From the UHGV virus genome UHGV-1378516: a DNA stretch of 64,000 nt; one strand, 5' to 3'. How positions within the stretch are numbered: the stretch's first letter is position 1; each line of letters starts with the position of its first letter. The DNA is from a virus. This document shows positions 1 through 59,640 of the stretch, in pieces. A program made the translations under genes and the position numbers. The notes under the pieces are model-generated. The model did no database searches and had not been told where the DNA came from. It saw nothing but the letters and a program-made list of their open reading frames with translations.

Positions 1-430
1 CAAACTTACCAAATAGTTTCTTTGCAGCAGGCCATAAACCACCTTGTAGCTGTGTTGTATTTCGACGGAAATATACAGCATTATAATTAGGGTCTTCAAT
101 AAACCTTAAAGAATCCATTAACAATGCAGCAGTTTTACCAGCACCAGCAGCACCACCATAGAGAACCAAGTCAGCATTAGTATTTAAAAAGACCTCTTGA
201 GAACCCGGCTGAGGGGCTACATAATTCTTATCAGTCATCAATTTGAAGATAAGTCTAACTTGGTCTGGTGTGTATCTTAATAAAGTCAGAATTTGAGTTG
301 GAAGGAATTTAGAGGGGTCTTTACCGAATGATTTGATAATTTCTTTTACTTCATCAGAAAGCCCCAACTCTCCAGCTAGGACTTTCCTAACATCTTCCAC
401 TCTCTTCTGCTTAACAGCATTTAAGTCCAT
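1..430 (-). CDS. terminase large subunit, N-terminal ATPase part (CDS runs off the window at coordinate 1)
   Basis: Minus-strand ORF with ATG at 428-430 preceded by GGAGGTG RBS; translation MDLNAVKQKRVEDV... contains Walker-A-like LVLYGGAAGAGKT typical of TerL ATPase domains. Confidence 0.55.
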   Translation of the reverse strand, partial: MDLNAVKQKRVEDVRKVLAGELGLSDEVKEIIKSFGKDPSKFLPTQILTLLRYTPDQVRLIFKLMTDKNYVAPQPGSQEVFLNTNADLVLYGGAAGAGKTAALLMDSLRFIEDPNYNAVYFRRNTTQLQGGLWPAAKKLFGKF

Positions 431-451
431 TAAGCACCTCCGCAAATAGAA

Positions 452-652
452 TTATTCAGAGTCTGTAGCAGTCTCTTCTTTCTTAACTTCGAACTTTGCA
501 TCAACAGCATCAAGAAGTGCATCCATAGATGCTTCTTTAATATCAATACCTGTTGCTACAGACAATCTGTCTGCAATTGCCATGATAGTATTCTGCATAA
601 ATTCTAGCTTTTTATTAGCTTCATAAAGTTCTTTATAAACGGTCTCGCTCAT
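452..652 (-). CDS. hypothetical protein (66 aa)
   Basis: ORF track; tightly placed upstream of terL-like gene; no recognisable motif. Confidence 0.4.
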   Translation of the reverse strand: MSETVYKELYEANKKLEFMQNTIMAIADRLSVATGIDIKEASMDALLDAVDAKFEVKKEETATDSE

Positions 653-877
653 TATGTTTTCTCCAAATAGTTAACCATGTTTCCCCTTAAAAAAGACGGC
701 ACAGAGACCGTCAAGGAGAAACCACAATGTACGTCAGAGACATACTGTATAAGTCTTCCTATAAAGTATAACTCTGTAAAAAAGCCCTGTCTAAAAATAC
801 TCTTCGGTAGCGAAAGGAAGAATACTTATAGCAGGGCATTATTATTATTTTAATTGAGAGAGAGTAAAATAACTTGG

Positions 878-950
878 AGAATCCGAAGGGACTCGAACCC
901 TTATAAACCTGTTTTGCAGACAGGCACATAGCCATTTCTGTCACGGATTC
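878..950 (-). tRNA. tRNA-Cys (anticodon GCA)
   Basis: Perfect 7-bp acceptor stem GAATCCG/CGGATTC, T-arm GGGTTCGAGTCCC, anticodon loop CTGCAAA. Confidence 0.7.
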
Positions 951-954
951 AAAT

Positions 955-1047
955 TGGAGGAAGATACCAGACTTGAACTGGTACACCGATTTCTCAGCTA
1001 CTGGCAGTTTAGCAAACTGCTCCCTTACCTTTTAGGGTTAATCTTCC
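955..1047 (-). tRNA. tRNA-Ser (anticodon GCT), type II, CCA encoded
   Basis: Acceptor GGAAGAT/ATCTTCC, T-arm ACCAGTTCAAGTCTGGT, anticodon stem GCAGT/ACTGC with loop TTGCTAA, long variable arm. Confidence 0.6.
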
Positions 1048-1049
1048 AT

Positions 1050-1784
1050 TTATTTCTGTAATACGTTCTTCATTTCTGGTGTTGCAATAGTGTCAATTAC
1101 ACCAGTTTTACAAGCATCATCAAACCAGTCTGGTAAGATACCTGCTAAGAACCCATTGATATTCGTTTTAAGGTACTCTGCAATAAGAGCAGCTTCTTCT
1201 TCAATCATCTGCACAACTTCATCTGCATAAGCTGTAATTTTTGAAATACCTTCATTAATCTTACTAACAGCTTGGTTAGCTAAATCAGAAATAGTATCAA
1301 GACCTTTGTCAATAGCGTCTTGTAAGTCACTTAATACATCATTAACACCGTCTAGTGCACTGTTAATCGTATCAATAGCTTTTTGACCATACTCTGTAGC
1401 AACACCCATAATACCACTAAATGGTGTACAACCAACTTGTTCACCTGCTGCACCCATAACATTAGAATAGCCTTTTGCTACCTGCATACGTGATGAGAAC
1501 TCATCAATGGACTTTTGACCGTAATCTGTCAGTGTTTTGGTAGTTGATGTAGTGCTTGTCAGACTCGTGGTAAAGCTGTTAAGCAGAACTGTTGTGAGTC
1601 CAGCAGCAACAAGCTTATCCTTTACTGTAGGGTCTGATACAGAGCTAATAGAGCTTACAAGTGATGTAGAGGCAGCTACGGTTCCGCCGAGAACTGCTGC
1701 ACCAGTAATAAGGGGGTTAGAAAACCCTTTACCAGTTTTTAAGAGATTGAAAATCTCCTTACCTTGTTCTGTCATCTCTTTCAT
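1050..1784 (-). CDS. hypothetical Ala/Thr/Ser-rich protein (start moved to internal ATG so it does not overlap tRNA-Phe)
   Basis: ORF 1050-1847 in track; ATG at 1782-1784 with AAAGGTG RBS; upstream 20 codons overlap a tRNA. Confidence 0.5.
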   Translation of the reverse strand: MKEMTEQGKEIFNLLKTGKGFSNPLITGAAVLGGTVAASTSLVSSISSVSDPTVKDKLVAAGLTTVLLNSFTTSLTSTTSTTKTLTDYGQKSIDEFSSRMQVAKGYSNVMGAAGEQVGCTPFSGIMGVATEYGQKAIDTINSALDGVNDVLSDLQDAIDKGLDTISDLANQAVSKINEGISKITAYADEVVQMIEEEAALIAEYLKTNINGFLAGILPDWFDDACKTGVIDTIATPEMKNVLQK

Positions 1785-1802
1785 TAAGCACCTTTGAAAT
1801 TG

Positions 1803-1877
1803 GTAGTCCAGTGGGATTTGAACCCTCTTCTCATGTTTTTCAGACACGCGCTTTAACCATATAAGCTACTTGGACTA
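1803..1877 (-). tRNA. tRNA-Phe (anticodon GAA)
   Basis: Acceptor TAGTCCA/TGGACTA, T-loop TTCAAAT, anticodon loop CTGAAAA. Confidence 0.65.
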
Positions 1878-1885
1878 TAAATTGG

Positions 1886-1958
1886 GGTGACCTACGGGAT
1901 TTGAACCCGTATAGACCATGTTCACAGCATGGGTCATTACCATTTATGATAAGGCCAC
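1886..1958 (-). tRNA. tRNA-His (anticodon GTG)
   Basis: Acceptor GTGGCCT/AGGTCAC, T-arm ACGGGTTCAAATCCCGT, anticodon stem CCATG/CATGG loop CTGTGAA. Confidence 0.7.
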
Positions 1959-1992
1959 ATTTAAGGACTCTCGTAAGAATCCTTAGAAGTGG

Positions 1993-2065
1993 CAGCGGCA
2001 TAAGGATTTGAACCTTAATAGGACAGCTTCAGAGACTGTTGCATTGCCAGTTATGCTATACCGCT
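1993..2065 (-). tRNA. tRNA-Gln (anticodon CTG)
   Basis: Acceptor AGCGGTA/TGCCGCT, T-arm TAAGGTTCAAATCCTTA, anticodon loop CTCTGAA. Confidence 0.6.
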
Positions 2066-2072
2066 AAATTTG

Positions 2073-2142
2073 GTACTCCATATCGGATTCGAACCGATAC
2101 ATAACACAGATTTTAAGTCTGGCCTCTCTGCCAATTGGAGTA
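2073..2142 (-). tRNA. tRNA-like gene, short (about 68-70 nt), anticodon loop CTTAAAA (UAA, nominally Leu); non-canonical D-arm
   Basis: T-arm ATCGGTTCGAATCCGAT and acceptor pairing present; D-arm does not fold canonically. Confidence 0.4.
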
Positions 2143-2154
2143 ATGGAGCATTGG

Positions 2155-2227
2155 CGGGGGATGTTGGAATTGAACCAACTTCTTCGATTTCAAAGACCGA
2201 GGTTTTAACCTTGTAAACTAATCCCCT
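2155..2227 (-). tRNA. tRNA-Gln (anticodon TTG)
   Basis: T-arm GTTGGTTCAATTCCAAC, acceptor AGGGGAT/ATCCCCC (1-72 mismatch), anticodon loop CTTTGAA. Confidence 0.55.
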
Positions 2228-2235
2228 TTAAATCT

Positions 2236-2793
2236 TTACTTTCTTAGTGGATGAATAAAGAATGCCAACATAACTCTTTCCCTTGAGAATGCTCTTTCTT
2301 CTGGGACAACGCTTTTAAGTTTCCACCCAACATAAATTCTCCAGTAAAATTGTTTACCAAAGATTTTGATTGATGGCACAAAAGCGAATAACCCCCAAGC
2401 ATTACTGTTCCACATTAGGAGATAACCAGTTTGATTATCTTCAGGGTTAGAACTTACGTTGATATTACCTTTCCACTTAGTAACGTCTTTTACATCTCTT
2501 CCTAACACATGGTAAGAGAAGTTATAAGCTTTGTTTCTCCAGAGCCATCCAACTCTCTGCATGTAGACACCAAGCTTACCAATCTTTCTAATCTTAGCCC
2601 ATCGTTTGATATGACCTGCATCACCATCAATTGGGTTGTCATAAGTCTCCATCCATCTGAACCCGAAAGGCAAGTGTCCTTTCTTCTCACTGTAGAATGG
2701 AACTACAAAAGGTGCTAAGATAACTGCTAAGATTGCTGCAAATGGCTCTAACAAAGCTAAGAAAATCCATGAAGCATACTTTAAGTATCTCAT
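2236..2793 (-). CDS. hypothetical membrane protein embedded in tRNA cluster
   Basis: ORF track 185 aa; hydrophobic N-terminus IFLALLEPFAAILAVILAPFVVPF. Confidence 0.5.
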   Translation of the reverse strand: MRYLKYASWIFLALLEPFAAILAVILAPFVVPFYSEKKGHLPFGFRWMETYDNPIDGDAGHIKRWAKIRKIGKLGVYMQRVGWLWRNKAYNFSYHVLGRDVKDVTKWKGNINVSSNPEDNQTGYLLMWNSNAWGLFAFVPSIKIFGKQFYWRIYVGWKLKSVVPEERAFSRERVMLAFFIHPLRK

Positions 2794-3032
2794 TGTCTAA
2801 TCCTCGTAAGGAGGTAAATGTTATTATTAGTTTCTAAACCTTCTGGTAAAACTGTCTCAAAAATAACACTCTTCAGATGTCTACCACCAAAACAATCACG
2901 TATAAATCTTTCTACTCTAGCGGGGTCACATAAGTATCCCACTTTTAAGAAAATGTGGTGTTCAACACCAATGACCCTGACAAACTCAATACTCTCACAG
3001 TTTTCATGTTCAACTACTGTTAATGTTTGCAT
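2790..3032 (-). CDS. hypothetical protein (80 aa)
   Basis: ORF track; 4-nt overlap with downstream gene suggests translational coupling. Confidence 0.4.
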   Translation of the reverse strand: MQTLTVVEHENCESIEFVRVIGVEHHIFLKVGYLCDPARVERFIRDCFGGRHLKSVIFETVLPEGLETNNNIYLLTRIRQ

Positions 3033-3052
3033 AGTATCACCTTTTTATCTGG

Positions 3053-3125
3053 CGCAGGATAAGGGATTCGAACCCCTATTAACAGCTTCGTAGACTGTTG
3101 CTCTTTCCATTTGAACTAATCCTGC
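3053..3125 (-). tRNA. tRNA-Arg (anticodon ACG)
   Basis: Perfect acceptor GCAGGAT/ATCCTGC, T-loop TTCGAAT, anticodon loop CTACGAA. Confidence 0.7.
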
Positions 3126-3133
3126 AAAATTGG

Positions 3134-3208
3134 TGTTCCAAGACGGATTCGAACCGTCACTAATACAAGGTTTGAGCTTGCATCCTCTGCCAATTGGGAT
3201 ACTGGAAC
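3134..3208 (-). tRNA. tRNA with anticodon CAA (nominally Leu) but short type-I architecture
   Basis: Acceptor GTTCCAG/TTGGAAC, T-arm GACGGTTCGAATCCGTC, anticodon loop CTCAAAC, discriminator A; no long variable arm. Confidence 0.5.
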
Positions 3209-3212
3209 ATGG

Positions 3213-3284
3213 TACTCACTAAAGGACTTGAACCTTTTTCTTCATCTTGTAAGGGTGATGTTTTACCATATAAACTAAGCGAGT
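3213..3284 (-). tRNA. tRNA-Val (anticodon TAC)
   Basis: Acceptor ACTCGCT/AGTGAGT (one GU), T-arm AAAGGTTCAAGTCCTTT, anticodon loop CTTACAA. Confidence 0.55.
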
Positions 3285-3288
3285 ATGA

Positions 3289-3376
3289 AAGAGGTCTGGA
3301 GTTGTGCCGCTAACTCAACTCCGTGGAATTTGTTACGGTCTTCAGTTGACTCAAAGCGGTCTTTCACTTGACCTCT
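3289..3376 (-). ncRNA. tRNA-sized structured RNA candidate without canonical T-loop
   Basis: 7-bp terminal pairing AGAGGTC/GACCTCT spaced 88 nt apart, internal 7-bp hairpin GGAGTTG...CAACTCC; no TTCRANT T-loop. Confidence 0.25.
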
Positions 3377-3383
3377 GAATTGG

Positions 3384-3456
3384 TGCTCCCACAAGGACTC
3401 GAACCCTGATAAGTTGCTTACAAGGCAACCGTAATAACCAATTATACGATAGGAGC
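3384..3456 (-). tRNA. tRNA-Thr (anticodon TGT)
   Basis: Acceptor GCTCCTA/TGGGAGC, T-arm CAGGGTTCGAGTCCTTG, anticodon stem GTTGC/GCAAC loop CTTGTAA. Confidence 0.65.
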
Positions 3457-3466
3457 ATTAATTTGG

Positions 3467-3538
3467 AGCATCCAGAGGGAATCGAACCCTCAACCTCAGT
3501 TTGGAAGACTGTAATTTTCCCGTTTAAACTATGGATGC
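3467..3538 (-). tRNA. tRNA-Gly (anticodon TCC)
   Basis: Perfect acceptor GCATCCA/TGGATGC, T-arm GAGGGTTCGATTCCCTC, anticodon loop CTTCCAA. Confidence 0.65.
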
Positions 3539-3547
3539 ACTAATTGG

Positions 3548-3620
3548 TGGAGTCACCGAGAATTGAACTCGGTTCCCAAGTTTGCAAAACTCGAATTTTA
3601 ACCATATAAACTATGACCCC
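3548..3620 (-). tRNA. tRNA-Ala (anticodon TGC)
   Basis: Acceptor GGGGTCA/TGACTCC with G3-U70, T-arm CCGAGTTCAATTCTCGG, anticodon loop TTTGCAA. Confidence 0.7.
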
Positions 3621-3629
3621 AATGTCTGG

Positions 3630-3702
3630 TACAGGTGGAGGGAATTGAACCCATCGTCTTACTGATTAAGAGTCAGCCGCATAACCATTTTGCTACACCT
3701 GC
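3630..3702 (-). tRNA. tRNA-Lys (anticodon CTT)
   Basis: Acceptor GCAGGTG/CACCTGT, T-loop TTCAATT, anticodon stem GCTGA/TCAGT loop CTCTTAA. Confidence 0.55.
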
Positions 3703-3712
3703 ATTAATTTGG

Positions 3713-3788
3713 TAGGAGACAAGGGATTCGAACCCTCAAGCATCTCGTTCTAAGCGAGATAGGTCTACCAAGTTGCCGTCAATCTCCC
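3713..3788 (-). tRNA. tRNA with anticodon TAG (nominally Leu), type-I length
   Basis: Acceptor GGGAGAT/GTCTCCT (two GU), T-arm GAGGGTTCGAATCCCTT, perfectly palindromic anticodon arm ATCTCG-CTTAGAA-CGAGAT. Confidence 0.5.
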
Positions 3789-4044
3789 ATTAAATCTTTT
3801 TAGAGAACTTCTAAGAACCTGAGCAACAAGGTTCCACAACAAGCGACTAATAACCTTAGAAGCCCTCTAAAAAGACCTAAATAGGTCTTTGCATAGTCTT
3901 GTTTAATCCGGTGACTAGAACCTTTGGAGAGCTTGATATTATCTCTTCTCCGTGACACCTACTAGGTGCTTTGACAGTGTACGACAATACACGAGGGATA
4001 AACCGACAATGCGAACAAGCATGGACGGAGTAAATCTTATTAGG

Positions 4045-4132
4045 CGGTAAGTAAAGGAGTCGAACCCTCACCGTATCTCTACAGTGGCAACAGTTTTCAA
4101 GACTGTTTGGCTGCCATTAGCCGCTACCTACC
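4045..4132 (-). tRNA. tRNA-Ser (anticodon TGA), type II
   Basis: Acceptor GGTAGGT/ACTTACC, T-loop TTCGACT, anticodon stem ACAGT/ACTGT loop CTTGAAA, long variable arm. Confidence 0.6.
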
Positions 4133-4148
4133 CCTAATAAGACTTTGG

Positions 4149-4228
4149 CATGGGACGGAGGAGTTGAACCCCTTTGAAACGGTTTTGGAGGCCGTTGCTC
4201 ATGCCTTAGAGTCTTAACATCGTCCCAT
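4149..4228 (-). tRNA. tRNA-like gene (80 nt), anticodon undetermined (possible 9-nt loop containing CCA)
   Basis: Perfect acceptor ATGGGAC/GTCCCAT and T-arm AGGGGTTCAACTCCTCC; interior does not fold into canonical D/anticodon arms. Confidence 0.4.
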
Positions 4229-4373
4229 ATTATAATTCGAAGCTTACCCTGTTATCTCAACACTGTCAAGCTTCTTCTCAGATTATTTACATGTTCTGGA
4301 AAACATGAGATACAGACCACCTCCCTACAGGAAGACCCGCTAAGGCCGTCTAAGTAATCTGCTAACTATTTGG

Positions 4374-4447
4374 TACACCCTACAGGATTCGAACCTGTAA
4401 CTAACGATTTAGAAGACCGTTGCTCTATCCAATTGAACTAAGGGTGC
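4374..4447 (-). tRNA. tRNA-Arg (anticodon TCT)
   Basis: Acceptor GCACCCT/AGGGTGT, D-arm GTTCAATTGGATAGAGC, T-loop TTCGAAT, anticodon loop CTTCTAA. Confidence 0.65.
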
Positions 4448-4696
4448 ATTATCTTTAAAGACTCTCTTAGAAAGCCCTTAAAGATGCCCACCTTATTAAT
4501 CATACCGTGGGCGAGTACGCCAAATTCTTTGATGAGGGATTGGAAGACCTCACTGGTGTTTAGCCTATCAAGCTACTGCCAGAAAAACATTGTCGTTTGC
4601 ATTTATTTTAAATTTGCAAAATAGACGCTACGCAACGAAAACTAAGGTTACTATAAAGTAGTCACATCTCAATGTCAACAACTTTATTGAAATTGG

Positions 4697-4769
4697 TACT
4701 GGTAGGTGGAATCGAACCACCGATGTTCCCTTATCAGGGGAGTGTTATAACCTTCTTAACTATACCAGC
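4697..4769 (-). tRNA. tRNA-Ile (anticodon GAT)
   Basis: Acceptor GCTGGTA/TACCAGT, T-arm GGTGGTTCGATTCCACC, anticodon loop CTGATAA. Confidence 0.65.
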
Positions 4770-4773
4770 TTGG

Positions 4774-4847
4774 AGGTTCAGATGGGAATCGAACCCACAT
4801 TCATAGGGCTTATGAGACCCTTGCATTACCTTATCTGCGACTGAACC
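4774..4847 (-). tRNA. tRNA-Met (anticodon CAT; initiator-like GGG/CCC in anticodon stem)
   Basis: Perfect acceptor GGTTCAG/CTGAACC, T-loop TTCGATT, anticodon stem AGGGT/GCCCT loop CTCATAA. Confidence 0.6.
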
Positions 4848-4854
4848 ATATTGG

Positions 4855-4927
4855 TAGAAGTGGAGGGATTCGAACCCATCGCCTGTCAGATTAAAAGTCT
4901 GCCGCATCACCATTCTGCTACACTTCC
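4855..4927 (-). tRNA. tRNA-Lys (anticodon TTT)
   Basis: Acceptor GGAAGTG/CACTTCT, T-loop TTCGAAT, anticodon loop CTTTTAA. Confidence 0.6.
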
Positions 4928-5126
4928 ATTAAATTATCTTTGTAGATAAGCTACCCAGACTTGCTTAAGGTCTGTAGCGATGTGCCTTTTGGGTTTAAAT
5001 CTAGAATTTACCCATTCACCCTTTGTGGTCGCATACTCACAGGTAAGCTTAATAACTTATCTACAAAGATAATTACCAGACCGTTGTTTATCATCTTAAG
5101 TGCTACCATTACACCAACTCGACATC

Positions 5127-5172
5127 TGCCGAGTGAAGGAATCGAACCTTCGCCTTTTCTTTACCGGAGAAA
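5127..5172 (-). pseudogene. tRNA remnant: 3' half (T-arm + acceptor 3' strand) plus an anticodon-arm-like hairpin (loop CCGGTAA), no matching 5' acceptor strand
   Basis: T-arm GAAGGTTCGATTCCTTC present; no complementary 5' acceptor strand within 100 nt. Confidence 0.3.
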
Positions 5173-5358
5173 TAGATTGTTTAAGTTTTGCTGTAAACGG
5201 TCTTCTGTAAATTTGTTGAGCCAGACCAAGTTTTAAATTTTCAAAATTAAATTGGCTTGAAATTTCATACGTTCTTGCTGTATTTGGTCTTCTGCTCCTT
5301 TAAAGAATACTCGTAAGAACTCTTTAAGGGAGGGGCTAAATAGCCCTCTCAAAATTGG

Positions 5359-5433
5359 CGGTTACGAAGGGATTTGAACCCTCATCATCTCCCGTGACAG
5401 GGGAGTATTTTAACCAGATTAAACTACATAACC
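5359..5433 (-). tRNA. tRNA-Asp (anticodon GTC)
   Basis: Acceptor GGTTATG/CGTAACC, T-loop TTCAAAT, anticodon stem CTCCC/GGGAG loop CTGTCAC. Confidence 0.65.
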
Positions 5434-5441
5434 TTTATTGG

Positions 5442-5526
5442 TGTGCCGTGTAGGAGTCGAACCTACCGAGTCTCAATGACAAGGGATTTACAGTCCCCAC
5501 CGCTACCATCTACGGGATAACGACAC
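5442..5526 (-). tRNA. tRNA-Tyr (anticodon GTA), type II
   Basis: Acceptor GTGTCGT/ACGGCAC, T-arm GTAGGTTCGACTCCTAC, anticodon loop CTGTAAA, long variable arm. Confidence 0.6.
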
Positions 5527-5598
5527 ATTTAATTTCTATTCAGGCTAAGGACTTGCACCTTACAAATCGGTGAGCAATCGCTTCTCTCCTAAATTTGG

Positions 5599-5672
5599 CG
5601 GTTAGTCAGGGATTCGAACCCTGTGCCATTCGCTTAACAGGCGACCGCACATACCTTATGTGCTTCCTAACC
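5599..5672 (-). tRNA. tRNA-Asn (anticodon GTT)
   Basis: T-arm CAGGGTTCGAATCCCTG, acceptor GGTTAGG/ACTAACC, anticodon loop CTGTTAA. Confidence 0.6.
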
Positions 5673-5759
5673 ATGTTTAGTATTACCAGACCGTATCTTT
5701 CAATTTTTTCCGCTAAAAATTTAATAAATATTGCTGTAAACGGTCTTCTGTAAATTTGG

Positions 5760-5833
5760 AGGCGGGTGCAGGAGTCGAACCTGCCGATACCATGCTAATG
5801 AGACATGTGAGACGCCCTTTCTCTATACCCGCA
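5760..5833 (-). tRNA. tRNA-Met (anticodon CAT), 1-72 mismatch
   Basis: T-arm GCAGGTTCGACTCCTGC, acceptor TGCGGGT/ACCCGCC, anticodon stem CATGT/GCATG loop CTCATTA. Confidence 0.55.
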
Positions 5834-5927
5834 ATTCTTAATGACCAGACCAAATCTCTTCTTTGTCCGATTTACCTTCAGATGAATAAGATTAAGTTTG
5901 CTGTAATTGGTCTTCTGTCAAAACTGG

Positions 5928-6002
5928 CGTTCCAGAAGGGATTTGAACCCTCAAATATCCACTTTGAAAGAGTGGTGACTTTACCATTTTGTCTACTGGA
6001 AC
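5928..6002 (-). tRNA. tRNA-Glu (anticodon TTC)
   Basis: Perfect acceptor GTTCCAG/CTGGAAC, T-loop TTCAAAT, anticodon stem CCACT/AGTGG loop CTTTCAA. Confidence 0.65.
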
Positions 6003-6012
6003 ATTAATTTGG

Positions 6013-6086
6013 TCTCTGTTGGAGGACTTGAACCTCCGGCCTTACCGCCCCAAACGGAACGCTCTACCAAGCTGAGCTAAACAGAG
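6013..6086 (-). tRNA. tRNA-Pro (anticodon TGG)
   Basis: Perfect acceptor CTCTGTT/AACAGAG, canonical D-arm GCTCAGCTTGGTAGAGC, T-arm GGAGGTTCAAGTCCTCC, anticodon loop TTTGGGG. Confidence 0.65.
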
Positions 6087-6251
6087 ATAAACTTTTCAAA
6101 CTCTATGTAACCACTTTAACATTATTTTTTAGTGGTTGTCAAGAACTTTTTTAAAATATTCTTCAGTATCTTAGAAAAGCTCTCATTTCGTTTCTATGTA
6201 GAACATATTAAAGGGTATTAAACACATTGTCAATACCCTTTTTAAAACTTT

Positions 6252-7667
6252 TTACCAGATGTAACGGTCAATCATTACTGCTTTGAGCATTACGCTGATT
6301 GGGTCAAACTTCTCACCACCAAGCAGAGCTTTTAAAGTGGCTGGAGAGAAACCAGATACCATTGCTACACCGTTATCCTTAACGGACACTTCGCAAGTAC
6401 CATTACGGTTTGCTAAGTACCAGAATACCAGTTGTGGCATCTCATATCCAGCTTTTTTGTACTTGCTCTGAATTGCTTCAAAGTTTGTACGACCGTTAGC
6501 TCCATCAACCTGATTGAACTCCATATCAGAGAATATGATAAGCTTACTTGGCATATCTTTCTGAGTCAAGTTGTTTCTCTTACCTATTTCAAGAATGCGG
6601 TCAAAAGCTGCTTGTAAGTTAGTTGAACCATATTCAACATGACGCATTACCTGACGATGACGGTTTCGTAAATCACCACTCAGTTCGATGAAGTGAGGGT
6701 TTGTTGAATAAACCATCAACTCATTCTTAAAGCAACCTGTATTGCGTTCTGCTACATACAAGGCAAGTGATACACCAATATCAAGGGCGGTGATTGAACC
6801 AAGATTCACCCAAGACATTGAGCTTGAAACATCAGTCATACACAAGATGTTTTCACCTTCTGCCATCCAGTTTGGTAGTGCTTTCCACTGCTCATTGGCA
6901 ACATCTGCATTACCATGCTTGATAGACTTAATCACATCGTATGGGTAAACAGCACCAGCATTAATCTTAGCCTCACCCTTTGATAAGGACTCAATGTAAG
7001 CTTTGTAGCGTTCTCCATCTTTACGGTTAAACAGTTTTTGGTAACGTGCAGCAGCAAGTGAAGGAATCTTACTGTAGTCAATCTTACCAAACTCATTAGC
7101 AGAGATTTTTTGCTCAACTGTATCAGATAGTGCAGACAACAGTGTGCGGTACTCTTTCTCACTCAAGTTGGCAAACTTGCAGAAACGTTTTACAAACTGC
7201 TTATGACGTGGTTTGACTCGTGGTAACCACTTAGCTGCCAAACCTGCTGTTGCAGGGTCTAGTAATGCTGCTTCTAAATGTTTGAAGGCATCTGTCTCGA
7301 AACGAGTACCTACGAAGATTTTGAAGTCATCAAAACGGCCAAGTTCTGCAATCTTATCCATAATACGAAGAACCTGCGTAGACTCTAAAACTTTGTCTTC
7401 AATTGCTTGAAGCAAAACAGTTCTGAAGGCTTTACGCTCACCCATACCTTCTCGTACATCTCGCATATGAAGCAAAATACGAACTGCAACATCAACATCC
7501 TCACGCAAAGCTTTGTAGAACAGGTCTGGTAAGATTTCTACGTTGCTACGGCTTGAACCAGCAGCTTTGTAAAAGTCTACAAGAGCAGACATTGATGAAG
7601 TATGGTTTACAGCACCATTTTCAGTTCGACCTGCATGAAGGTGCGCATGTTTAAATAATTCGCTCAT
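6252..7667 (-). CDS. von Willebrand factor A (vWA) domain protein, DUF2828-like
   Basis: 471-aa ORF; MIDAS-type DxSxS motif (MTDVSSSM) followed by a vWA-like C-terminal region. Confidence 0.5.
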   Translation of the reverse strand: MSELFKHAHLHAGRTENGAVNHTSSMSALVDFYKAAGSSRSNVEILPDLFYKALREDVDVAVRILLHMRDVREGMGERKAFRTVLLQAIEDKVLESTQVLRIMDKIAELGRFDDFKIFVGTRFETDAFKHLEAALLDPATAGLAAKWLPRVKPRHKQFVKRFCKFANLSEKEYRTLLSALSDTVEQKISANEFGKIDYSKIPSLAAARYQKLFNRKDGERYKAYIESLSKGEAKINAGAVYPYDVIKSIKHGNADVANEQWKALPNWMAEGENILCMTDVSSSMSWVNLGSITALDIGVSLALYVAERNTGCFKNELMVYSTNPHFIELSGDLRNRHRQVMRHVEYGSTNLQAAFDRILEIGKRNNLTQKDMPSKLIIFSDMEFNQVDGANGRTNFEAIQSKYKKAGYEMPQLVFWYLANRNGTCEVSVKDNGVAMVSGFSPATLKALLGGEKFDPISVMLKAVMIDRYIW

Positions 7668-7748
7668 ATTTTACTCTCTTCTCTCATTTGTTGTTTGATG
7701 TGACAGACTTTAGAGCAACTTTGTAGAGCCTGTCAACACCTTTTAAAA

Positions 7749-8120
7749 TTATTTTTTAAGCGTTGCTACAGCAGAGAATGTTGGTTTGTTATCTGTCTGA
7801 GACTGACCAACATTATCAGGGGTCTTCTTAGTGTCTGCTGCAATTGCTTTCATCTCACCCGCTGAGTGGGTCATGATAGTTTTACCAGCTTCCATCATCG
7901 ACTTCAGGTTTACATCGTCAGTCGTCAAACCGAACTCTGCAAGCTTAGCAGCGTCCCTTGTAACAATCGCTTCAAACAACTTTGCAGCAAACTCAGCAGA
8001 ATTATCAATGGTCAGTTGAGCTTTTACAAGTGAACTTTTGTTACGAGAGCCTTTTGGTCTTCCAGATGGGTTTCCAGATTGGCCTTTTTTAAACTGGCCT
8101 TTGTTTGTTCTGTTTTTCAT
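7749..8120 (-). CDS. hypothetical protein with N-terminal basic Gly-rich motif (GNPSGRPKG)
   Basis: 123-aa ORF; motif KGQSGNPSGRPKGSRNK common in phage proteins of unknown function. Confidence 0.5.
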   Translation of the reverse strand: MKNRTNKGQFKKGQSGNPSGRPKGSRNKSSLVKAQLTIDNSAEFAAKLFEAIVTRDAAKLAEFGLTTDDVNLKSMMEAGKTIMTHSAGEMKAIAADTKKTPDNVGQSQTDNKPTFSAVATLKK

Positions 8121-8248
8121 TGGTATGCCTCTTATAAGACCTCTTAAAAGGCTTTTAAGATAAAAGATAGATATCCAGAAAGATATCTGTTTAAATAGCC
8201 TTTTTAGAGGAACCTTTTAAGTTATCTTCTAAGTATTTATAAGCCTAC

Positions 8249-8280
8249 ACCTTGTCAAGTACTTTGTCAACAACTTTTTT
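8249..8280 (+). promoter_or_regulatory. promoter/operator-like element CCTTGTCAAGTACTTTGTCAAC (direct TTGTCAA repeat 11 bp apart) at head of plus-strand block
   Basis: Near-identical copy at 52571-52592 upstream of DNA polymerase gene; lies in divergent intergenic region. Confidence 0.35.
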
Positions 8281-8369
8281 AACTTGCAATAGTTCTTGAC
8301 TTGTTGTATGGATTACTGTACCATCTTACTTAAAGCTGTAGGTCTGCCTTGTTCTACAAAGGAGACTTA

Positions 8370-16223: not shown

Positions 16224-16772
16224 ATGGAAAAAGATAACTTAAAAGATGTTGAAGGTAACTATCTAGTCCTTGATTGGAGTGATGCTCAAGAAGCACTCTC
16301 TGAAGAAAGTCTTGACAGATTAAAACAGATTGTTTTTGCAGTACGGGGTTACAGAGAAGTTAAAAATGGTAAAGACCCACTTGAAGGAGTCTTTGTAGAG
16401 AAATCTTATCCGTTCTATGAAGACACTTTGCAGAAAGTTAAGATGTACTTTAGACAGAAGAACCGTAAAGTGGTCACTATGGTATCTCTTGGTGGACAGA
16501 ATATGTCTGTGATGGAAGATATTAATCCTAAGAGACCGAGTAAAGGTATCTGTATAAAAATCACAGGACATGAAGAGTATATCTCAGTGGATGACTTTAG
16601 TGCATTCTGTAATGGCTCTTGCGTCTTTAATGGTTTTCACTATGATATCCGAGTGTACCCAATTAAGGGTGATGATATCATGATGCAGGTATTCGATAAT
16701 AACAATGGATTTACTCATTTTTATCAGACAACCAAGTCATCATTGAAAACAGTTCTGGAAACACTGATTTAA
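16224..16772 (+). CDS. hypothetical protein (start moved to internal ATG after upstream stop)
   Basis: Track ORF 16179-16772 overlaps previous gene; ATG at 16224 is first after stop. Confidence 0.45.
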   Translation: MEKDNLKDVEGNYLVLDWSDAQEALSEESLDRLKQIVFAVRGYREVKNGKDPLEGVFVEKSYPFYEDTLQKVKMYFRQKNRKVVTMVSLGGQNMSVMEDINPKRPSKGICIKITGHEEYISVDDFSAFCNGSCVFNGFHYDIRVYPIKGDDIMMQVFDNNNGFTHFYQTTKSSLKTVLETLI

Positions 16773-16783
16773 AATATCTTAAG

Positions 16784-16810
16784 AGCCCCCTTAATTGGGG
16801 GCTTTTTAAT
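16784..16810 (+). terminator. rho-independent terminator
   Basis: Hairpin AGCCCCCTTAATTGGGGGCT followed by TTTTTAATTTTT. Confidence 0.7.
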
Positions 16811-16829
16811 TTTTATAAAATTTTATCGG

Positions 16830-17950
16830 TTGTTCCAACCTCTGGGTCACCATCATATGTGAATAAAATATCTATCCTTCTTAACAACCTTCTTAATCTT
16901 ACTCTCTATATAGTTATATAGTACTATATAGTATCTTAGTAACTATCTAGTGGTCTTAATAGCCCTCTGTATAACCCTTCTAAATAGCCCTCTAAACACT
17001 CTTCTAACAAGCCTTCTTAACAACCTATACAATCACCTTAACCATCTCTCTATACCCTCTTAGAAGCCCCTATACACCTCTTAATCTCTAGGTTAGCTAT
17101 GATACCCTCTATAGGTGTTCACTAGGTATTACTAAGCCTCTATATAGACTGTTTTAACAAACTTAACAGGAATATCTTCACAGACCTTATCTCACAAGGT
17201 CTAACACGGTACTAACAAGGTATCTTATAAGCCTGTTTCTACCTGTATTTTTAAAAGACTGTCTAGGTAATTATTCAGATTTTTAAAATTTTTATAAAAT
17301 AGGACTATCAAGTCATTTTTTAGGGTCTTTGAAGGAACTCAAAAATATCTGTAGGAGATGTATATCTGCTTGGTAGCCCTTAACAGCTCCCTTACAAGTA
17401 CTTTGCAAAATTTTAAAATATCCTTAACAATCTCTTAACAGTTCTCACATCTTCTTAACAACTCTTCAAAGGTCTTAACAGTTTCTTAACAGAACTAACA
17501 AGGGCTTAACAGTTTTCTAACAAGTGCTGAATAGGTTTTACAGAATCTTAACAGATGACTAACAAGAGCTAACAAGTTAATTTTAAAGAGTTATTTTGTT
17601 AGGGATTGGTAACAATACCAATTAGATAACTAACAAGTTCCTAATAAGTGTTTAATCTTTTTAACAAGCTATTAACATGGTCACTATCTCTTTTCTTATC
17701 GTTCCCTTTCTCTCTTAGTGATTCTCTAAACATACCTTTTAAAAACTCTCTATAGCTCCTTGTAAGCTCTTTTAAATCTCTTCCTAGTATCTACCCATCA
17801 ACTGTATGGATAGCTCTTTATAGGGCTTTACAGGAGCTTTTAAGGCTATGTCAAAGACTCTTACAAGGCTTTTACGTGGTCTTAACAGAGATTTAACAAG
17901 GGGCTAACAAGTCTCTAACAAGAATAACTATGTAGGGATTGTTAAGAAAT
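16830..17950. repeat. dense array of short YTAACAR motifs (CTTAACAA / CTTAACAG / CTAACAAG), more than 25 copies
   Basis: Read directly; densest at 17425-17580 with about 12 copies at 8-12 bp spacing; plus strand C+T-rich and G-poor. Confidence 0.6.
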
Positions 17951-18399
17951 TGTTAAGAAAATGTTAAGGGGGCTAGCATTTACGTAACTTTATAGCCTTT
18001 TTTACGTTACTTTGAAGTAACTTTATAGCCCCTATAACATGCTTTTTAGTGACTATCAAGGGGATTGTTTAGTTATTCACAAGATACTAGCCAGCCTATA
18101 AACTTTCACCCTTATAAGATTCTTTTAAGGCTCTGGGAAGCTCTATAAAGGGCTTTTTAGAGTGGGTTAATATGATTGCTTAAGTTAGGTTGATAAGGCT
18201 GTTATAGAGCTTTATAGAGCGTTTTAGTGGTTGCCCTTCCCTTTCGGATTATGGGCTTGTATTTAAGTTGATTTGATAAAAGGTTATAGAGTAGACTATA
18301 GAGTTATTGCTTTTAAGGTATGGGATAGATTCTATCGAATTAGTGGGATAGATTCTGGGAAGGAAAGGAAAGGGTTTTAATAGAGGCTATTACATAGAC

Positions 18400-18423
18400 G
18401 TAAAAAGCCCCATTTAAGGGGCT
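18400..18423 (-). terminator. rho-independent terminator ending the long minus-strand block
   Basis: Hairpin GCCCCTTAAATGGGGC followed by T-run on minus strand. Confidence 0.6.
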
Positions 18424-18461
18424 GTAAAGGTATCTGGGGCTATTTAGCCCCGTTGCGTCGA

Positions 18462-18710
18462 TTAGTTATGACCGTCTTTATCGTAATAAAGAGAAATAAT
18501 TTTATCGCCCCAATAGTGCCAATGTGTACCATCTTTCACCGCTTCTTGAATAGCTGCAATCCAAAAATCCGATTCAGGGTTATAATCCTTGACAATCTGG
18601 CTAACAAGGCTTTTCACCATGTCAAAAGCACTGTCAGTGCCTATAATGTCAAATTTAACGTCCAGAGAGTAGAAGCCAAATTCGTTAACAGTTGCGCGGA
18701 TAGTAGCCAT
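18462..18710 (-). CDS. hypothetical small protein (start trimmed to ATG after conserved RBS cassette)
   Basis: Track ORF read through the intergenic module; ATG at 18708-18710 follows AGGAG-ATTCTAAA spacer. Confidence 0.5.
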   Translation of the reverse strand: MATIRATVNEFGFYSLDVKFDIIGTDSAFDMVKSLVSQIVKDYNPESDFWIAAIQEAVKDGTHWHYWGDKIISLYYDKDGHN

Positions 18711-19110: not shown

Positions 19111-19641
19111 TTACAGACTTTTGATTGTTTCGTCAATATCTTTTTCAATATCTTTTAAAGTTTTTTCTAAGTTCTTGATATTGAAAGATAAACCTTCACC
19201 GAGAGTCTTAGAGTAACCGCTAGGACGTAAATCATAAAGGCTAATTTGTTCTACATTAGAGAGGCTGACCATTTCACCGCTTACATCATAAGCTATTGAT
19301 ACAGTATTTTCAGGGGCTTTATAGAACTTGTTTAGTGACTTGATAGAACGTTCATAAGCCATTTTATAACCGTTTAAAAGGTTTTTAACATGGTTGTAAA
19401 CGTTTTTACACTCATCCAAGTAAATCCCTAAGAATAGCGGTAATAATTCTGCTACAGCTTGCATAAAGTGAGAGACTACAACGGTTGCAGCATTACGACG
19501 ATGAACGTAATAAGCTCCGTTTTCTGATTTAGTGATGGTTGCAAAGTGTACCCCATTGCAGCGAAATTCGTAGGTATCTTTGACAGGCTTTGACATTACA
19601 GCACTTGAGCGGATGTAATTGATGGCTTTGAACTTGTTCAT
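19111..19641 (-). CDS. hypothetical protein (176 aa; start trimmed)
   Basis: ATG at 19639-19641 directly after cassette RBS. Confidence 0.5.
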   Translation of the reverse strand: MNKFKAINYIRSSAVMSKPVKDTYEFRCNGVHFATITKSENGAYYVHRRNAATVVVSHFMQAVAELLPLFLGIYLDECKNVYNHVKNLLNGYKMAYERSIKSLNKFYKAPENTVSIAYDVSGEMVSLSNVEQISLYDLRPSGYSKTLGEGLSFNIKNLEKTLKDIEKDIDETIKSL

Positions 19642-19725
19642 TTTAGAGTCTCCTAGTTTAAGGATTTTGTTTAGTGGGAAGGTCATTCCCTCCCCGTTGA
19701 TTAGTAATTTACTTGCTTTGATAGC
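19642..19725 (-). repeat. intergenic cassette, variant A
   Basis: TTTAGAGTCTCCTAGTTTAAGGATTTTGTTTAGTGGGAAGGTCATTCCCTCCCCGTTGATTAGTAATTTAC. Confidence 0.6.
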
Positions 19726-19862
19726 TGATTGCAAGCAATTTTTTAAGCTTATCTATAAAGAATCTTTTAAGTGAATCCTTTTAGATAAACCCCCTCGAAC
19801 AAAGTTACCAATGTCAAGGGGTATTGTCAACACTTTTTTAAAAGTTTTTTGTAAGTTATTGA

Positions 19863-20713: not shown

Positions 20714-20797
20714 TTTAGAATCTCCAATTTAGGATTGAGTGGTAAAGCTCTTTATCTGGGGCTATCTTATCAGCTTGATAACCCCCTGTAAAGTACT
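20714..20797 (-). repeat. intergenic cassette, variant B (GGGGCT...CCCC hairpin + palindrome GTAAAGTACTTTAC)
   Basis: TTTAGAATCTCCAATTTAGGATTGAGTGGTAAAGCTCTTTATCTGGGGCT...CCCCCTGTAAAGTACTTTAC. Confidence 0.6.
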
Positions 20798-21070
20798 TTA
20801 CACTAAATGCAGTTTTTTACCTTTTACTATAATGTAACTCGATGCACTATTGCTTTGCACATCCTGATAAATTCTGCGCAAACGGCCTTCGTAGTGTACT
20901 TTCCAACTGGTTGGAATCTTTTTACCGTATCCCGTAGCAGTTTTTTGGAGTCCTGCGACTTGCCAATCTAAGATATGTTGTTCAGCTTGTAAGTCTTCAA
21001 AGTGCATGACACCATCTACATAGTGACGTAGTGTGACATTTAAAGTGCGACCGTTGTTAGTAGTATACAT
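20798..21070 (-). CDS. hypothetical protein (90 aa)
   Basis: ORF track. Confidence 0.5.
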   Translation of the reverse strand: MYTTNNGRTLNVTLRHYVDGVMHFEDLQAEQHILDWQVAGLQKTATGYGKKIPTSWKVHYEGRLRRIYQDVQSNSASSYIIVKGKKLHLV

Positions 21071-21493: not shown

Positions 21494-21783
21494 GGTGTTT
21501 CCTCTTTACGTGATACTTTGCCATTTACAGTTATCTCATAGGATTCTAATAAATCGCTTTTAGACTTTACAGGGCTTTTAAAAGTATCATCATAGATATT
21601 GACTTGCAATACAGGTTTTTTATATTCCCTGCAACTATTCCATAAGCAAATCACTACACGACGGCCTTTGATTTTTCCGTGCAACCATTCCATAACATCA
21701 TGCCTATTCCTTGATGTTTCAATGAAATCAATTTTATTAAGTAACTTGCTTAGATTTTCACGGACTTTATTTGATAGTTTCAT
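21487..21783 (-). CDS. hypothetical protein (98 aa)
   Basis: ORF track; ATG follows cassette. Confidence 0.5.
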   Translation of the reverse strand: MKLSNKVRENLSKLLNKIDFIETSRNRHDVMEWLHGKIKGRRVVICLWNSCREYKKPVLQVNIYDDTFKSPVKSKSDLLESYEITVNGKVSRKEETPC

Positions 21784-21868
21784 TTTAGAATCTCCAGTTT
21801 AGGATTTAGTTGTAAAGCTCTTTATCTGGGGCTTAAGATATCAACTTTTAAACCCCCTGTAAAGTACT
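21784..21868 (-). repeat. intergenic cassette, variant B
   Basis: GGTAAAGCTCTTTATCTGGGGCTTAAG...CCCCCTGTAAAGTACTTTAT. Confidence 0.6.
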
Positions 21869-22162
21869 TTATTTGTTAATTTTCAGCTTTGCATAACCTC
21901 TCATTGTACGAATTGGAGATGTTAAGGCTACGCGTCTAATATATGCCTTTTTCGTGTATACATTTGTCTTCCCGATAGTGTTTACACATGTAAAAAGATT
22001 TATTGGTGAATTTTTTAACTTCAACTGTTTATCAGCCTTCACACCCCATCTTACAGCAGATTGTTTTCCGTTGTCAACCACTTTCCCGCCTAACTTTTTC
22101 GCCATGATGCGAGCGTCATCGCGAGTTTTTGCAGTAATTACAACGTTTTTAATAATAGCCAT
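21869..22162 (-). CDS. hypothetical basic protein (start trimmed to MAIIKN)
   Basis: ATG 22160-22162 after TGGAGAACTTAAAA cassette RBS. Confidence 0.5.
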   Translation of the reverse strand: MAIIKNVVITAKTRDDARIMAKKLGGKVVDNGKQSAVRWGVKADKQLKLKNSPINLFTCVNTIGKTNVYTKKAYIRRVALTSPIRTMRGYAKLKINK

Positions 22163-22248
22163 TTTTAAGTTCTCCAATTTAGGATTTAGTGGTAAAGCTC
22201 TTTATCTGGGGCTTACTTTATCGAACTATAAGCCCCCTGTAAAGTACT
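22163..22248 (-). repeat. intergenic cassette, variant B
   Basis: Hairpin GGGGCTTACTTTATCGAACTATAAGCCCC then CTGTAAAGTACTTTAT. Confidence 0.6.
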
Positions 22249-22629
22249 TTATTTAATTTTGAAGATTGTTACATAACCATCACTCCCGATGATTTGTGAT
22301 ACTCCAGCCTTTTCTACTTGATAGCCCATATTTTCAAGATGATAAATAGCATCATCATAACCATATGCGCCACCCTGATAACGTCTCTTATCACATCTTA
22401 TCAGGTTTTTTCCACGTCCAGCAAGTGCATGGAGAATGGTTTTTTCACTTGAAAGAGTGCCATCTAACATGGTTGCCGTGTAATGGTTGATTTTATTCCC
22501 GTTGATATCATACTTGAAATTGAACGAGTGAACAACAATCACATTACCTTTGAAATTTTCATCAAGTGACTTCTCCAGTACGCTACGAAAGTTGTCTTTG
22601 TTGATGAATTTAGGCGCACGATATTTCAT
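22249..22629 (-). CDS. hypothetical protein (126 aa), first gene of the cassette array
   Basis: ORF track. Confidence 0.5.
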   Translation of the reverse strand: MKYRAPKFINKDNFRSVLEKSLDENFKGNVIVVHSFNFKYDINGNKINHYTATMLDGTLSSEKTILHALAGRGKNLIRCDKRRYQGGAYGYDDAIYHLENMGYQVEKAGVSQIIGSDGYVTIFKIK

Positions 22630-52381: not shown

Positions 52382-52570
52382 GTAAGCCTCTTTTAAGTAA
52401 CTATTAAGTTTTAATCTTTTATCTTAACGTATTCTATACGTTATACTTTAAAGCTTTTTAAAAGCTATTAAATAATCTTTTAAGAGTTTTAAAGTATCTG
52501 TATAGTTAAACTGTTAAGTAACCTTTTAAGTAAAAACCCACTTCGCAAAGATTAACACCTTGTCAAGTAC

Positions 52571-52600
52571 ATTGTCAACTTGCTTTTTATAATTTTTTGC
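52571..52600 (+). promoter_or_regulatory. promoter/operator-like element CCTTGTCAAGTACATTGTCAAC + TTATAAT upstream of DNA polymerase
   Basis: Direct TTGTCAA repeat; TATAAT-like hexamer 52590-52596; copy of 8249-8270 element. Confidence 0.4.
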
Positions 52601-52638
52601 AGTAATGTATGAGGTTAATGCTTTTAGAGGGAGTAAAA

Positions 52639-57939: not shown

Positions 57940-58260
57940 ACTCACCAGCATCACTTAAGAGTCTTTTAAAAGGGTTTTTAAGTGATGTTTGGTTAGGTAT
58001 GGTTGGGTGGTGTGAGGTCAGGTTTAGTTTGGTCTGGTAAGGTATGGGTAGTTAGTCTCAGCTACATTAAAATGAGACTTACCTTTTTAAAAGGTCTTTA
58101 GAGAGGGTCTTTTAATAAGGTCTGGTCGTGTCCGGTTCGGTAGTGTTGGGCTTGGCTTGGTCTGGTCTGGTAAGGGTGGATGGTAGTAGCCACGTTAAAA
58201 ATCTACCAAGTTTCTAAAGAGTCTTCTGTTGAGGGTTCTTTACAAACAACTTAACAATCA
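57940..58260. repeat. composite non-coding module A: palindrome CACTTAAGAG...TTAAGTGATG, GGT-rich tract, AAAAGGTCTTTAGAGAGGGTCTTTTAAT box
   Basis: Second copy at 59320-59640. Confidence 0.55.
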
Positions 58261-59325: not shown

Positions 59326-59349
59326 AGCCTCTTCGGAGGCTCCTTTTTA
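59326..59349 (+). terminator. rho-independent terminator
   Basis: Hairpin AGCCTCTTCGGAGGCT followed by CCTTTTTAAAA. Confidence 0.65.
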
Positions 59350-59640
59350 AAAGGTCTTTAAGAGGGTCTTTTAATGAGGTACGGCGCGGTTAGGTAAGGT
59401 CTGGTAGGGTAGGGTGAGGTTTGGTAAAGTGCGGGTAGTTAATCGGAGCTACATAAAAATTCGATTACATCACTTAAGAGTCTTCTAAGAGGATTTTTAA
59501 GTGATGCTCGGTCGGGTTTGGTAGGGTTTGGTAGGGTGTGGTTCGGTATGGTGTGGTTTGGTGTGGTATGGTATGGAAGGATGGCAGTAGCCTTATAAAA
59601 AATCTGCCAAATAAGCTATAAAATCTGTTGACAAGTCAGG
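59350..59640. repeat. composite non-coding module B (second copy of 57940-58260 module)
   Basis: GGT-rich tract GGTTTGGTAGGGTTTGGTAGGGTGTGGTTCGGTATGGTGTGG; palindrome CATCACTTAAGAG...TTAAGTGATG. Confidence 0.55.

Follow-up and report, generated by a model that had tools for sequence, protein, structure and literature searches.

The early promoters of phage T5, the A1-A3 promoters of phage T7, and rrnB P1 of Escherichia coli are sigma-70 promoters with UP-like A-tracts; an UP element is an A/T-rich tract at about -40 to -60 with which the alpha C-terminal domain makes contact. TTGACA is the sigma-70 -35 consensus, and a -10 is classically recognized by a hexamer whose T, A, and last T persist although the bases inside it differ among relatives; the sequence of the spacer between the two elements is normally unconstrained, and transcription starts 6-8 nt after the -10. 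The late promoter lambda PR' contains a Q-binding element, and in it a -35-like TTGACT lies downstream of the -10, by a -10-like pause site within the first ~25 transcribed nt, and is reused by sigma region 4. Pho boxes and lambda CII sites are direct repeats, located in the -35 region, to which activators bind.

Phages of the Felix O1 type are in wide use for biocontrol, therapy, and typing directed at Salmonella and E. coli. In Felix O1 itself, the predicted promoter P41, TTGACA(N15)TATAGG at 21515-21541, was assigned to the unit of genes 41-79, which covers tRNAs and morphogenesis (PMC3185647). For the 96-97 region the same authors reported no obvious promoter, and they left unexplained both the temporal control and the way in which transcription gets past the many terminators (PMC3185647). 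Our literature search found no transcriptome or start-site map for a Felixounavirus and nothing directly applicable on -35-like elements.

The window analyzed here, the whole 64,000-nucleotide stretch of UHGV virus genome UHGV-1378516, belongs to a Felixounavirus (Felix O1/wV8-like). When the two regions described below were compared with phage genomes by BLAST, more than 250 Felixounavirus records, among them Felix O1, wV8, and VpaE1, matched at 95-99% identity. The window has four main strand blocks, namely minus (1-8120), plus (8370-~16770), minus (~18450-52381), and plus (52639-~63180), with a short minus-strand segment beyond ~63180 at the right end. Two intergenic regions are divergent: 8121-8369, which holds what we call site 1, and 52382-52638, which holds site 2 and ends where the DNA polymerase ATG begins at 52639. 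Leftward of site 1 lie a DUF5681 gene, a putative Ro-like RNA-binding gene, and a minus-strand cluster of 26 tRNA genes, with structural genes beyond the window. The unit leftward of site 2 comprises the gp97 homolog and genes of replication and nucleotide metabolism. P41 of Felix O1 maps to window positions 8270-8244 on the minus strand, which is site 1, and the 96-97 region corresponds to site 2.

The two regions share a 22-bp sequence, CCTTGTCAAGTACWTTGTCAAC, that occurs in exactly two plus-strand copies in the window (8250-8271 and 52558-52579), where shuffled sequences give an expectation of zero. Both copies sit in the divergent intergenic regions, and the two sites are identical at 25 of 26 bases. 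No further copy was found in the window even at three mismatches, nor is there one in the remaining 24.5 kb of the genome, the structural module, as read from wV8. The first-pass annotation had placed such an element at the heads of two blocks. Both copies are real, but the second lies 13 bp to the left of the assigned 52571-52592 and the first is off by 1 bp, and the TTGTCAA repeats, given as 11 bp apart, have starts 12 bp apart. Taken alone, the word TTGTCAA is not significantly enriched (27 copies against 22.2 expected, a count reached by 23 of 100 shuffles), which rules it out as an enriched stand-alone signal. Scanning IMG/VR for CTTGTCAAGNNNNNTGTCAA was uninformative, returning mainly unrelated contigs in numbers close to the chance estimate. 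The same annotation had reported a related element in the repeated cassettes, and this holds: AAGTACTTTACA occurs three times, at 20786, 21857, and 22237. On the minus strand the cassette element TGTAAAGTACTTTACA (20786-20803, 21857-21869, 22237-22249) reads AAGTAC-TTTACA-N17-TATCTT; it is another -35 in the shared upstream context and overlaps a G/C-rich inverted repeat.

TGTCAA is the exact reverse complement of TTGACA, and read on the minus strand the motif takes on the layout of a promoter. Site 1 is ttAAAAAAgttg-TTGACA-aagtac-TTGACA-aggtg-TAGGCT, and site 2 is atAAAAAgcaag-TTGACA-atgtac-TTGACA-aggtgt-TAATCT; we refer to the upstream and downstream TTGACA as hexamers 1 and 2 (Table 1). Both sites have an exact TTGACA followed at 17±1 nt by a TAnnnT hexamer, lie in non-coding DNA, and face a gene, with minus-strand start codons 115-160 nt downstream. 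The A-tracts (AAAAAA and AAAAA) fall at about -46 to -41, are separated from the -35 by 4-5 nt, and are conserved as A/T runs, that of site 2 doubling as the spacer of the opposing promoter. Between hexamer 2 and the -10 there are 5-6 nt. Since the -10 hexamers match TATAAT at only 3 of 6 positions, these leftward promoters are not listed by a simple promoter scan.

Table 1. Coordinates of promoter elements in the window.
Feature	Position	Strand	Remarks
A-tract AAAAAA, site 1	8275..8280	-	4 nt upstream of -35; resembles proximal UP-element subsite; A/T run in all relatives
Hexamer 1 TTGACA, site 1	8265..8270	-	-35 (Felix O1 'P41'); invariant in 15 distinct sequences, 3 genera
Hexamer 2 TTGACA, site 1	8253..8258	-	in spacer, ~-23 to -18; invariant in all relatives
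-10 TAGGCT, site 1	8242..8247	-	17 nt from hexamer 1
A-tract AAAAA, site 2	52584..52588	-	upstream of -35; invariant in 22 distinct sequences
Hexamer 1 TTGACA, site 2	52573..52578	-	-35 ahead of gp97/replication unit; invariant; annotated promoter in AYO145A
Hexamer 2 TTGACA, site 2	52561..52566	-	in spacer; invariant in 22 distinct sequences
-10 TAATCT, site 2	52549..52554	-	18 nt from hexamer 1; TGt before it gives an extended -10
TTGACT-N17-TACCAT, for the 8370 block	8296..8324	+	from promoter scan; both hexamers invariant in all relatives
TTGCTT-N17-TAATGT, for DNA polymerase	52580..52608	+	-35 invariant; back to back with leftward -35
Third doubled promoter, TTGACA-N7-TTGACA-TTGG-TAACTT	19802..19830	-	-35 to -10, 17 nt

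Promoters of this build are found across the window. All 23 TTGACA-N16-18-TAnnnT sites are co-oriented with the genes downstream of them, and 15 of the 23 are intergenic, although intergenic DNA makes up 14% of the window (P = 3.5e-8). The A-tract context aaaaaagtNNTTGACA recurs at minus-strand promoters at 6142, 6233, 7736, 19830, and 20299, and an aaaaaagtNN-TTGACA-type context precedes minus-strand genes at 4678, 6142, 6233, 7736, 19830, 20299, 21164, 28474, 31438, 37312, 47755, and 48094; plus-strand genes have the -35 context in plus orientation (55345, 57891, 59628). TTGTCAA copies do occur at other gene starts, as the first-pass annotation observed. Because all 23 TTGACA-N16-18-TAnnnT sites face downstream genes, these copies are -35 boxes of minus-strand genes read backwards.

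For footprinting, both regions were aligned with those of Suspvirus and Mooglevirus relatives and then with all distinct IMG/VR versions, which gave 22 distinct sequences of site 2 and 15 of site 1. Some 180 records show the two intergenic regions at 99% identity or more, a conservation so strong that the few variable positions are informative; the flanking DUF5681 protein is less than 95% identical in most records. Among the relatives, which span three to four genera, the two TGTCAA hexamers are unchanged throughout and stay in a 12-bp register. All six bases between the hexamers vary at site 1, and at site 2 four of them take eight forms (TACA, TGTA, TGCA, CGCA, TTAT, TGAA, TGAT, and TGCT). 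The chance of all variable columns falling between the hexamers is 5e-5 for site 1 and 5e-3 for site 2. With the bases between the hexamers hypervariable, the GTAC center is not part of the signal, and a palindromic operator centered on this most variable part of the region is ruled out. The T that opens TTGTCAA varies as well, being A at site 1 in Mooglevirus and C at site 2 in one relative (L154). In the site 1 -10, TAGGCT is replaced by TAGCCT, TAAGTT, or TAGTGT, with the T, A, and final T invariant and the inner bases free, and the site 2 -10 appears as TGtTAGTCT or TGgTAGTCT, with TG, T, A, and final T kept.

More distant Ounavirinae carry a single TTGACA-N16/17-TAnnnT at equivalent positions and in the same orientation (Arno18, SE5, PMBT37, phiEa21-4, and Yersinia phage P778). 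Arno18 has TTGACA-N17-TAGGCT, with the same TAGGCT as site 1, back to back with a rightward TTGACC, while SE5 and PMBT37 have TTGACA-N17-TACATT. The latter sequence is also present in the site 2-equivalent region of phiEa21-4, at 64744(+), and the record of that phage annotates a promoter at 64862-64891 (+) that faces the gp97 homolog in the same direction. Ahead of the DUF5681 homolog, phiEa21-4 has TTGACA-N16-TAGAAT and P778 has TTGACA-N17-TAAAGT. Two GenBank records also annotate minus-strand promoters over the motif, ASO1A at site 1 and AYO145A at site 2. The leftward promoters as such have therefore already been predicted, in these records and as Felix O1 P41. For the shared 22-mer and the doubled -35 we found no description in the literature, and the Felix O1 paper is silent on the second TTGACA.

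We consider it quite probable, from strand, geometry, and conservation, that the motif forms the central part, -35 plus spacer, of two sigma-70 promoters that host RNA polymerase recognizes and that fire leftward. We infer that initiation at both sites would be by E. coli or Salmonella RNA polymerase with sigma-70, with predicted leftward transcription starts near 8235 (site 1) and 52542 (site 2). The site 1 promoter would drive the DUF5681/tRNA/structural unit and the site 2 promoter the gp97/replication unit. Assigning the correct strand thus gives likely start points for the two largest units, tRNA plus structural and replication. Ordinary sigma-70 promoters that had been predicted before account for most of the motif, and the doubled -35 is a modest novelty.

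The plus-strand blocks have conserved promoters of their own close by (Table 1). The -10 of the DNA polymerase promoter reads TAATGT, TAAGGT, TAGGGT, or TAGTGT, always keeping TAnnnT, and its spacer, which includes the TATAAT at 52588-52593, is constant in its 17-nt length and variable in sequence. The opposed -35 boxes at site 2 are 1 bp apart, which makes this region a back-to-back divergent pair. On the plus strand of site 1, hexamer 1 read as TTGTCA is followed 18 nt downstream by a TG-extended AATAGT, a combination that is listed by the promoter scan and partly conserved and may be a secondary rightward promoter. As site 2 has no equivalent, this is not the function that the two sites share. 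Each divergent region would then be a back-to-back pair, with the plus blocks served by their own adjacent promoters.

The first-pass annotation had instead read the motif as heading the plus-strand blocks, a reading in which a plus-strand promoter or operator, TTGTCAA-N5-TTGTCAA, replaces the -35, is bound by an activator, and drives these blocks from a -10 located 10 nt downstream. A TAnnnT hexamer does follow the motif by 10 nt at both sites (TAACTT at 8280-8285 and TATAAT at 52588-52593). The TGTCA direct repeats also resemble the PhoB box, CTGTCAT-N4-CTGTCAT some 10 nt upstream of the -10, and, like the Pho box and the TTGC-N6-TTGC of lambda CII, they are direct repeats of a TGTCA-like or TTG half-site overlapping the -35 region. 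Yet the AT-rich hexamers, although present here as annotated, are not conserved: relatives have TCAGTT or TTAGTT in place of TAACTT, and TGAAAC, TGAAGA, or TGTGTC in place of TATAAT, so that a key A or T is lost in Suspvirus and Mooglevirus, and the hexamer at site 2 falls in a spacer whose sequence varies freely. The repeat has a period of 12-13 bp (12 bp at sites 1 and 2), unlike the 11 bp of Pho boxes and the 10 bp of CII sites, and its initial T varies among relatives. With the wrong period and no conserved plus-strand -10, we rejected activation of the Pho-box or CII kind; nor is an activator needed, because the functional minus strand has a perfect -35. Conserved sigma-70 promoters for the plus blocks already lie 1-25 bp further on, and the distant relatives keep only one hexamer, paired with a minus-strand -10. 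A role in heading the plus blocks is accordingly very improbable, since it is the minus-strand blocks that the conserved TTGACA, A-tract, and TAnnnT at 17-18 bp face. Of the earlier suggestion that one promoter class or one regulator coordinates these units, the promoter class stands, in that the motif is promoter DNA that heads major units and is of a sigma-70 type found genome-wide; a dedicated regulator is no more than a possibility, which the conserved second hexamer allows.

A plain -35 does not account for the invariant second TTGACA in the spacer, which leaves part of the motif over. The doubled build recurs. In a third promoter, upstream of a 191-aa gene (19114-19686), the hexamers are 13 bp apart, and among the Felixounavirus variants recovered both are invariant while six of the seven inner bases vary. 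In phiEa21-4, TTGACA-N6-TTGACA-N5-TAnnnT is found at 16494 and 2390, which are non-homologous places. Pairs of TTGACA separated by 3-10 nt number four in the window and three in phiEa21-4, compared with 0.08 and 0.05 in shuffles; no such pair occurs in Yersinia phage P778. As in a direct-repeat operator, the hexamers are invariant and keep a fixed register at any given locus around a hypervariable linker. Judged by this pattern of substitution, hexamer 2 is under selection. Of the two doubled sites in phiEa21-4, one reads into a 1.2-kb ORF-free region (16472-17659), and the other lies at the end of rIIA, ahead of rIIB.

What the second hexamer does can be approached through several alternatives. 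It might be the -35 of a second, overlapping promoter that starts leftward transcription about 12 nt downstream, as suggested by its upstream context AAGTACTTGACA, which it shares with other -35s (6142 and the cassette promoters AAGTACTTTACA-N17-TATCTT), by an AATACT 15 nt downstream at site 1 that is annotated as a promoter in ASO1A, and by the true tandem TTGACA promoters of P778 in the equivalent region. However, nothing -10-like is found 15-18 nt after hexamer 2 at site 2 (CGAAGT, GAAGTG, AAGTGG), nor after hexamer 2 at 19817 (GGGGGT) or in phiEa21-4, and the AATACT of site 1 has an indel and a T-to-C change in relatives. We rejected hexamer 2 as a second -35 on the lack of a conserved -10 at the former three places, and as a general account tandem promoters are improbable. 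A neutral relic, left when the promoter region was copied between sites or when a 12-bp slippage duplicated the -35, is a little less probable still. The 25 of 26 bases common to the two sites and the resemblance of [AAGTNN TTGACA] to a tandem 12-bp duplication would fit such an origin, but a neutral hexamer should decay like its neighbors, whereas this one is invariant across genera and its build recurs at unrelated loci. An operator is the least unlikely of these alternatives, though we regard it as tentative, and it would add to the leftward promoters rather than replace them: the TTGACA pair would bind a phage or host protein that switches them off (or on). The hexamers and their 12-bp register are invariant across three genera around a linker that is the most variable part of the intergenic region, the doubled build reappears at 19830 and at two non-homologous places in phiEa21-4 with pairs far above shuffles, and the temporal control of Felix O1 transcription lacks an explanation (PMC3185647). 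Against this, no candidate regulator was found among seven neighboring proteins, those encoded first in the units included, in which searches with Pfam and PHROGs detected no recognizable DNA-binding domain. Two of the promoters have a period of 12 bp and the third one of 13 bp, the distance to the -10 ranges over 4-6 nt, and P778 and three other relatives have a single hexamer. In addition, the RT-PCR timing data, in which genes 41, 96, and 97 reach their maximum at 25 min as most genes do, are too coarse to define a class.

Returning to the leftward sigma-70 promoters, the conservation pattern leads us to guess that a protein, either a regulator or sigma region 4, makes an additional contact at hexamer 2 and so tunes or switches promoters at the heads of units. 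Hexamer 2 might be one half of an operator whose other half is the -35, or sigma region 4 might dock there a second time. The nearest analog that we know of is the -35-like element of lambda PR', which has a different geometry. More speculatively, and with somewhat less confidence than in an operator, the doubled TTGACA may mark a head-of-unit promoter subclass (three in Felixounavirus and two in phiEa21-4) in which hexamer 2 would be where a regulator, or a repositioned sigma region 4, docks and, together with the structured, CTTAAAAGR-rich leaders described below, would carry temporal or anti-termination control.

The two sites resemble consensus sigma-70 promoters with UP-like A-tracts in their TTGACA, 17-18 nt spacer, TAnnnT, A-tract, and position at the head of a unit, facing its genes. 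They differ from those of T5, T7 A1-A3, and rrnB P1 in their weak -10s and in the conserved second TTGACA within the spacer; we know of no second spacer TTGACA in those promoters. By analogy they may also recall lambda PR', as strong constitutive promoters that head long, terminator-studded late units and have, between or beside the core elements, extra conserved DNA that includes a -35-like hexamer. Unlike in PR', the extra hexamer is upstream of the -10, and the doubled build also heads an early (replication) unit. As for a pause element of the lambda Q type, no -10-like hexamer downstream of the -10 is common to the three doubled promoters, and no Q-like gene was noticed. The conserved second -35-like box is a target for mutagenesis and footprinting, which could uncover a regulator or show sigma-70 being used in an unusual way; if it proves inert, only ordinary strong host-type promoters remain.

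The leaders downstream of both leftward promoters (8121-8235 and 52382-52542, minus strand; 115-160 nt) are more conserved than the flanking genes, at 99% identity or more within the genus and about 90% between genera, and fold better than shuffled sequences (z = -3.1 and -2.6). An inverted repeat at 52426-52442, AACGTATtctATACGTT, has a compensated C:G to T:A change in Mooglevirus. The conserved leader could be a structured RNA or hold a protein-binding palindrome. CTTAAAAGR boxes number 13 in the window against 2.8 expected, at 8143, 8213, 19763, 52389, 52476, and 52522 and at seven other sites, and are concentrated in the leaders of the three promoters with a doubled -35. In the site 1 leader, these boxes are the arms of a long hairpin.

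Several other features of the window were observed along the way. A 471-aa protein encoded on the minus strand (6255-7667), immediately upstream of the tRNA cluster, matches DUF2828/DUF7788 and has a weak, sub-threshold VWA match; its PHROG family is named 'RNA-binding protein'. These matches suggest that it is Ro/TROVE-like. Between the converging plus and minus blocks, a 1.7-kb stretch (16773-18461) has no ORF of at least 45 aa on its block's strand. It contains a TTGACA promoter-like site at 17854, with others close by at 18625 and 18652, and phiEa21-4 has an equivalent of this gap. An Rfam search of 6000-60000 at gathering thresholds returned a single tRNA, with no match in 16773-18461. 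In the right-hand plus block, repeated elements occupy intergenic gaps at 57949-58180 and 59349-59576; they begin with a hairpin, CATCACTTAAGAG...CTTAAGTGATG, after which come long runs rich in GGT (GGTTTGGTAGGGTGTGG...).
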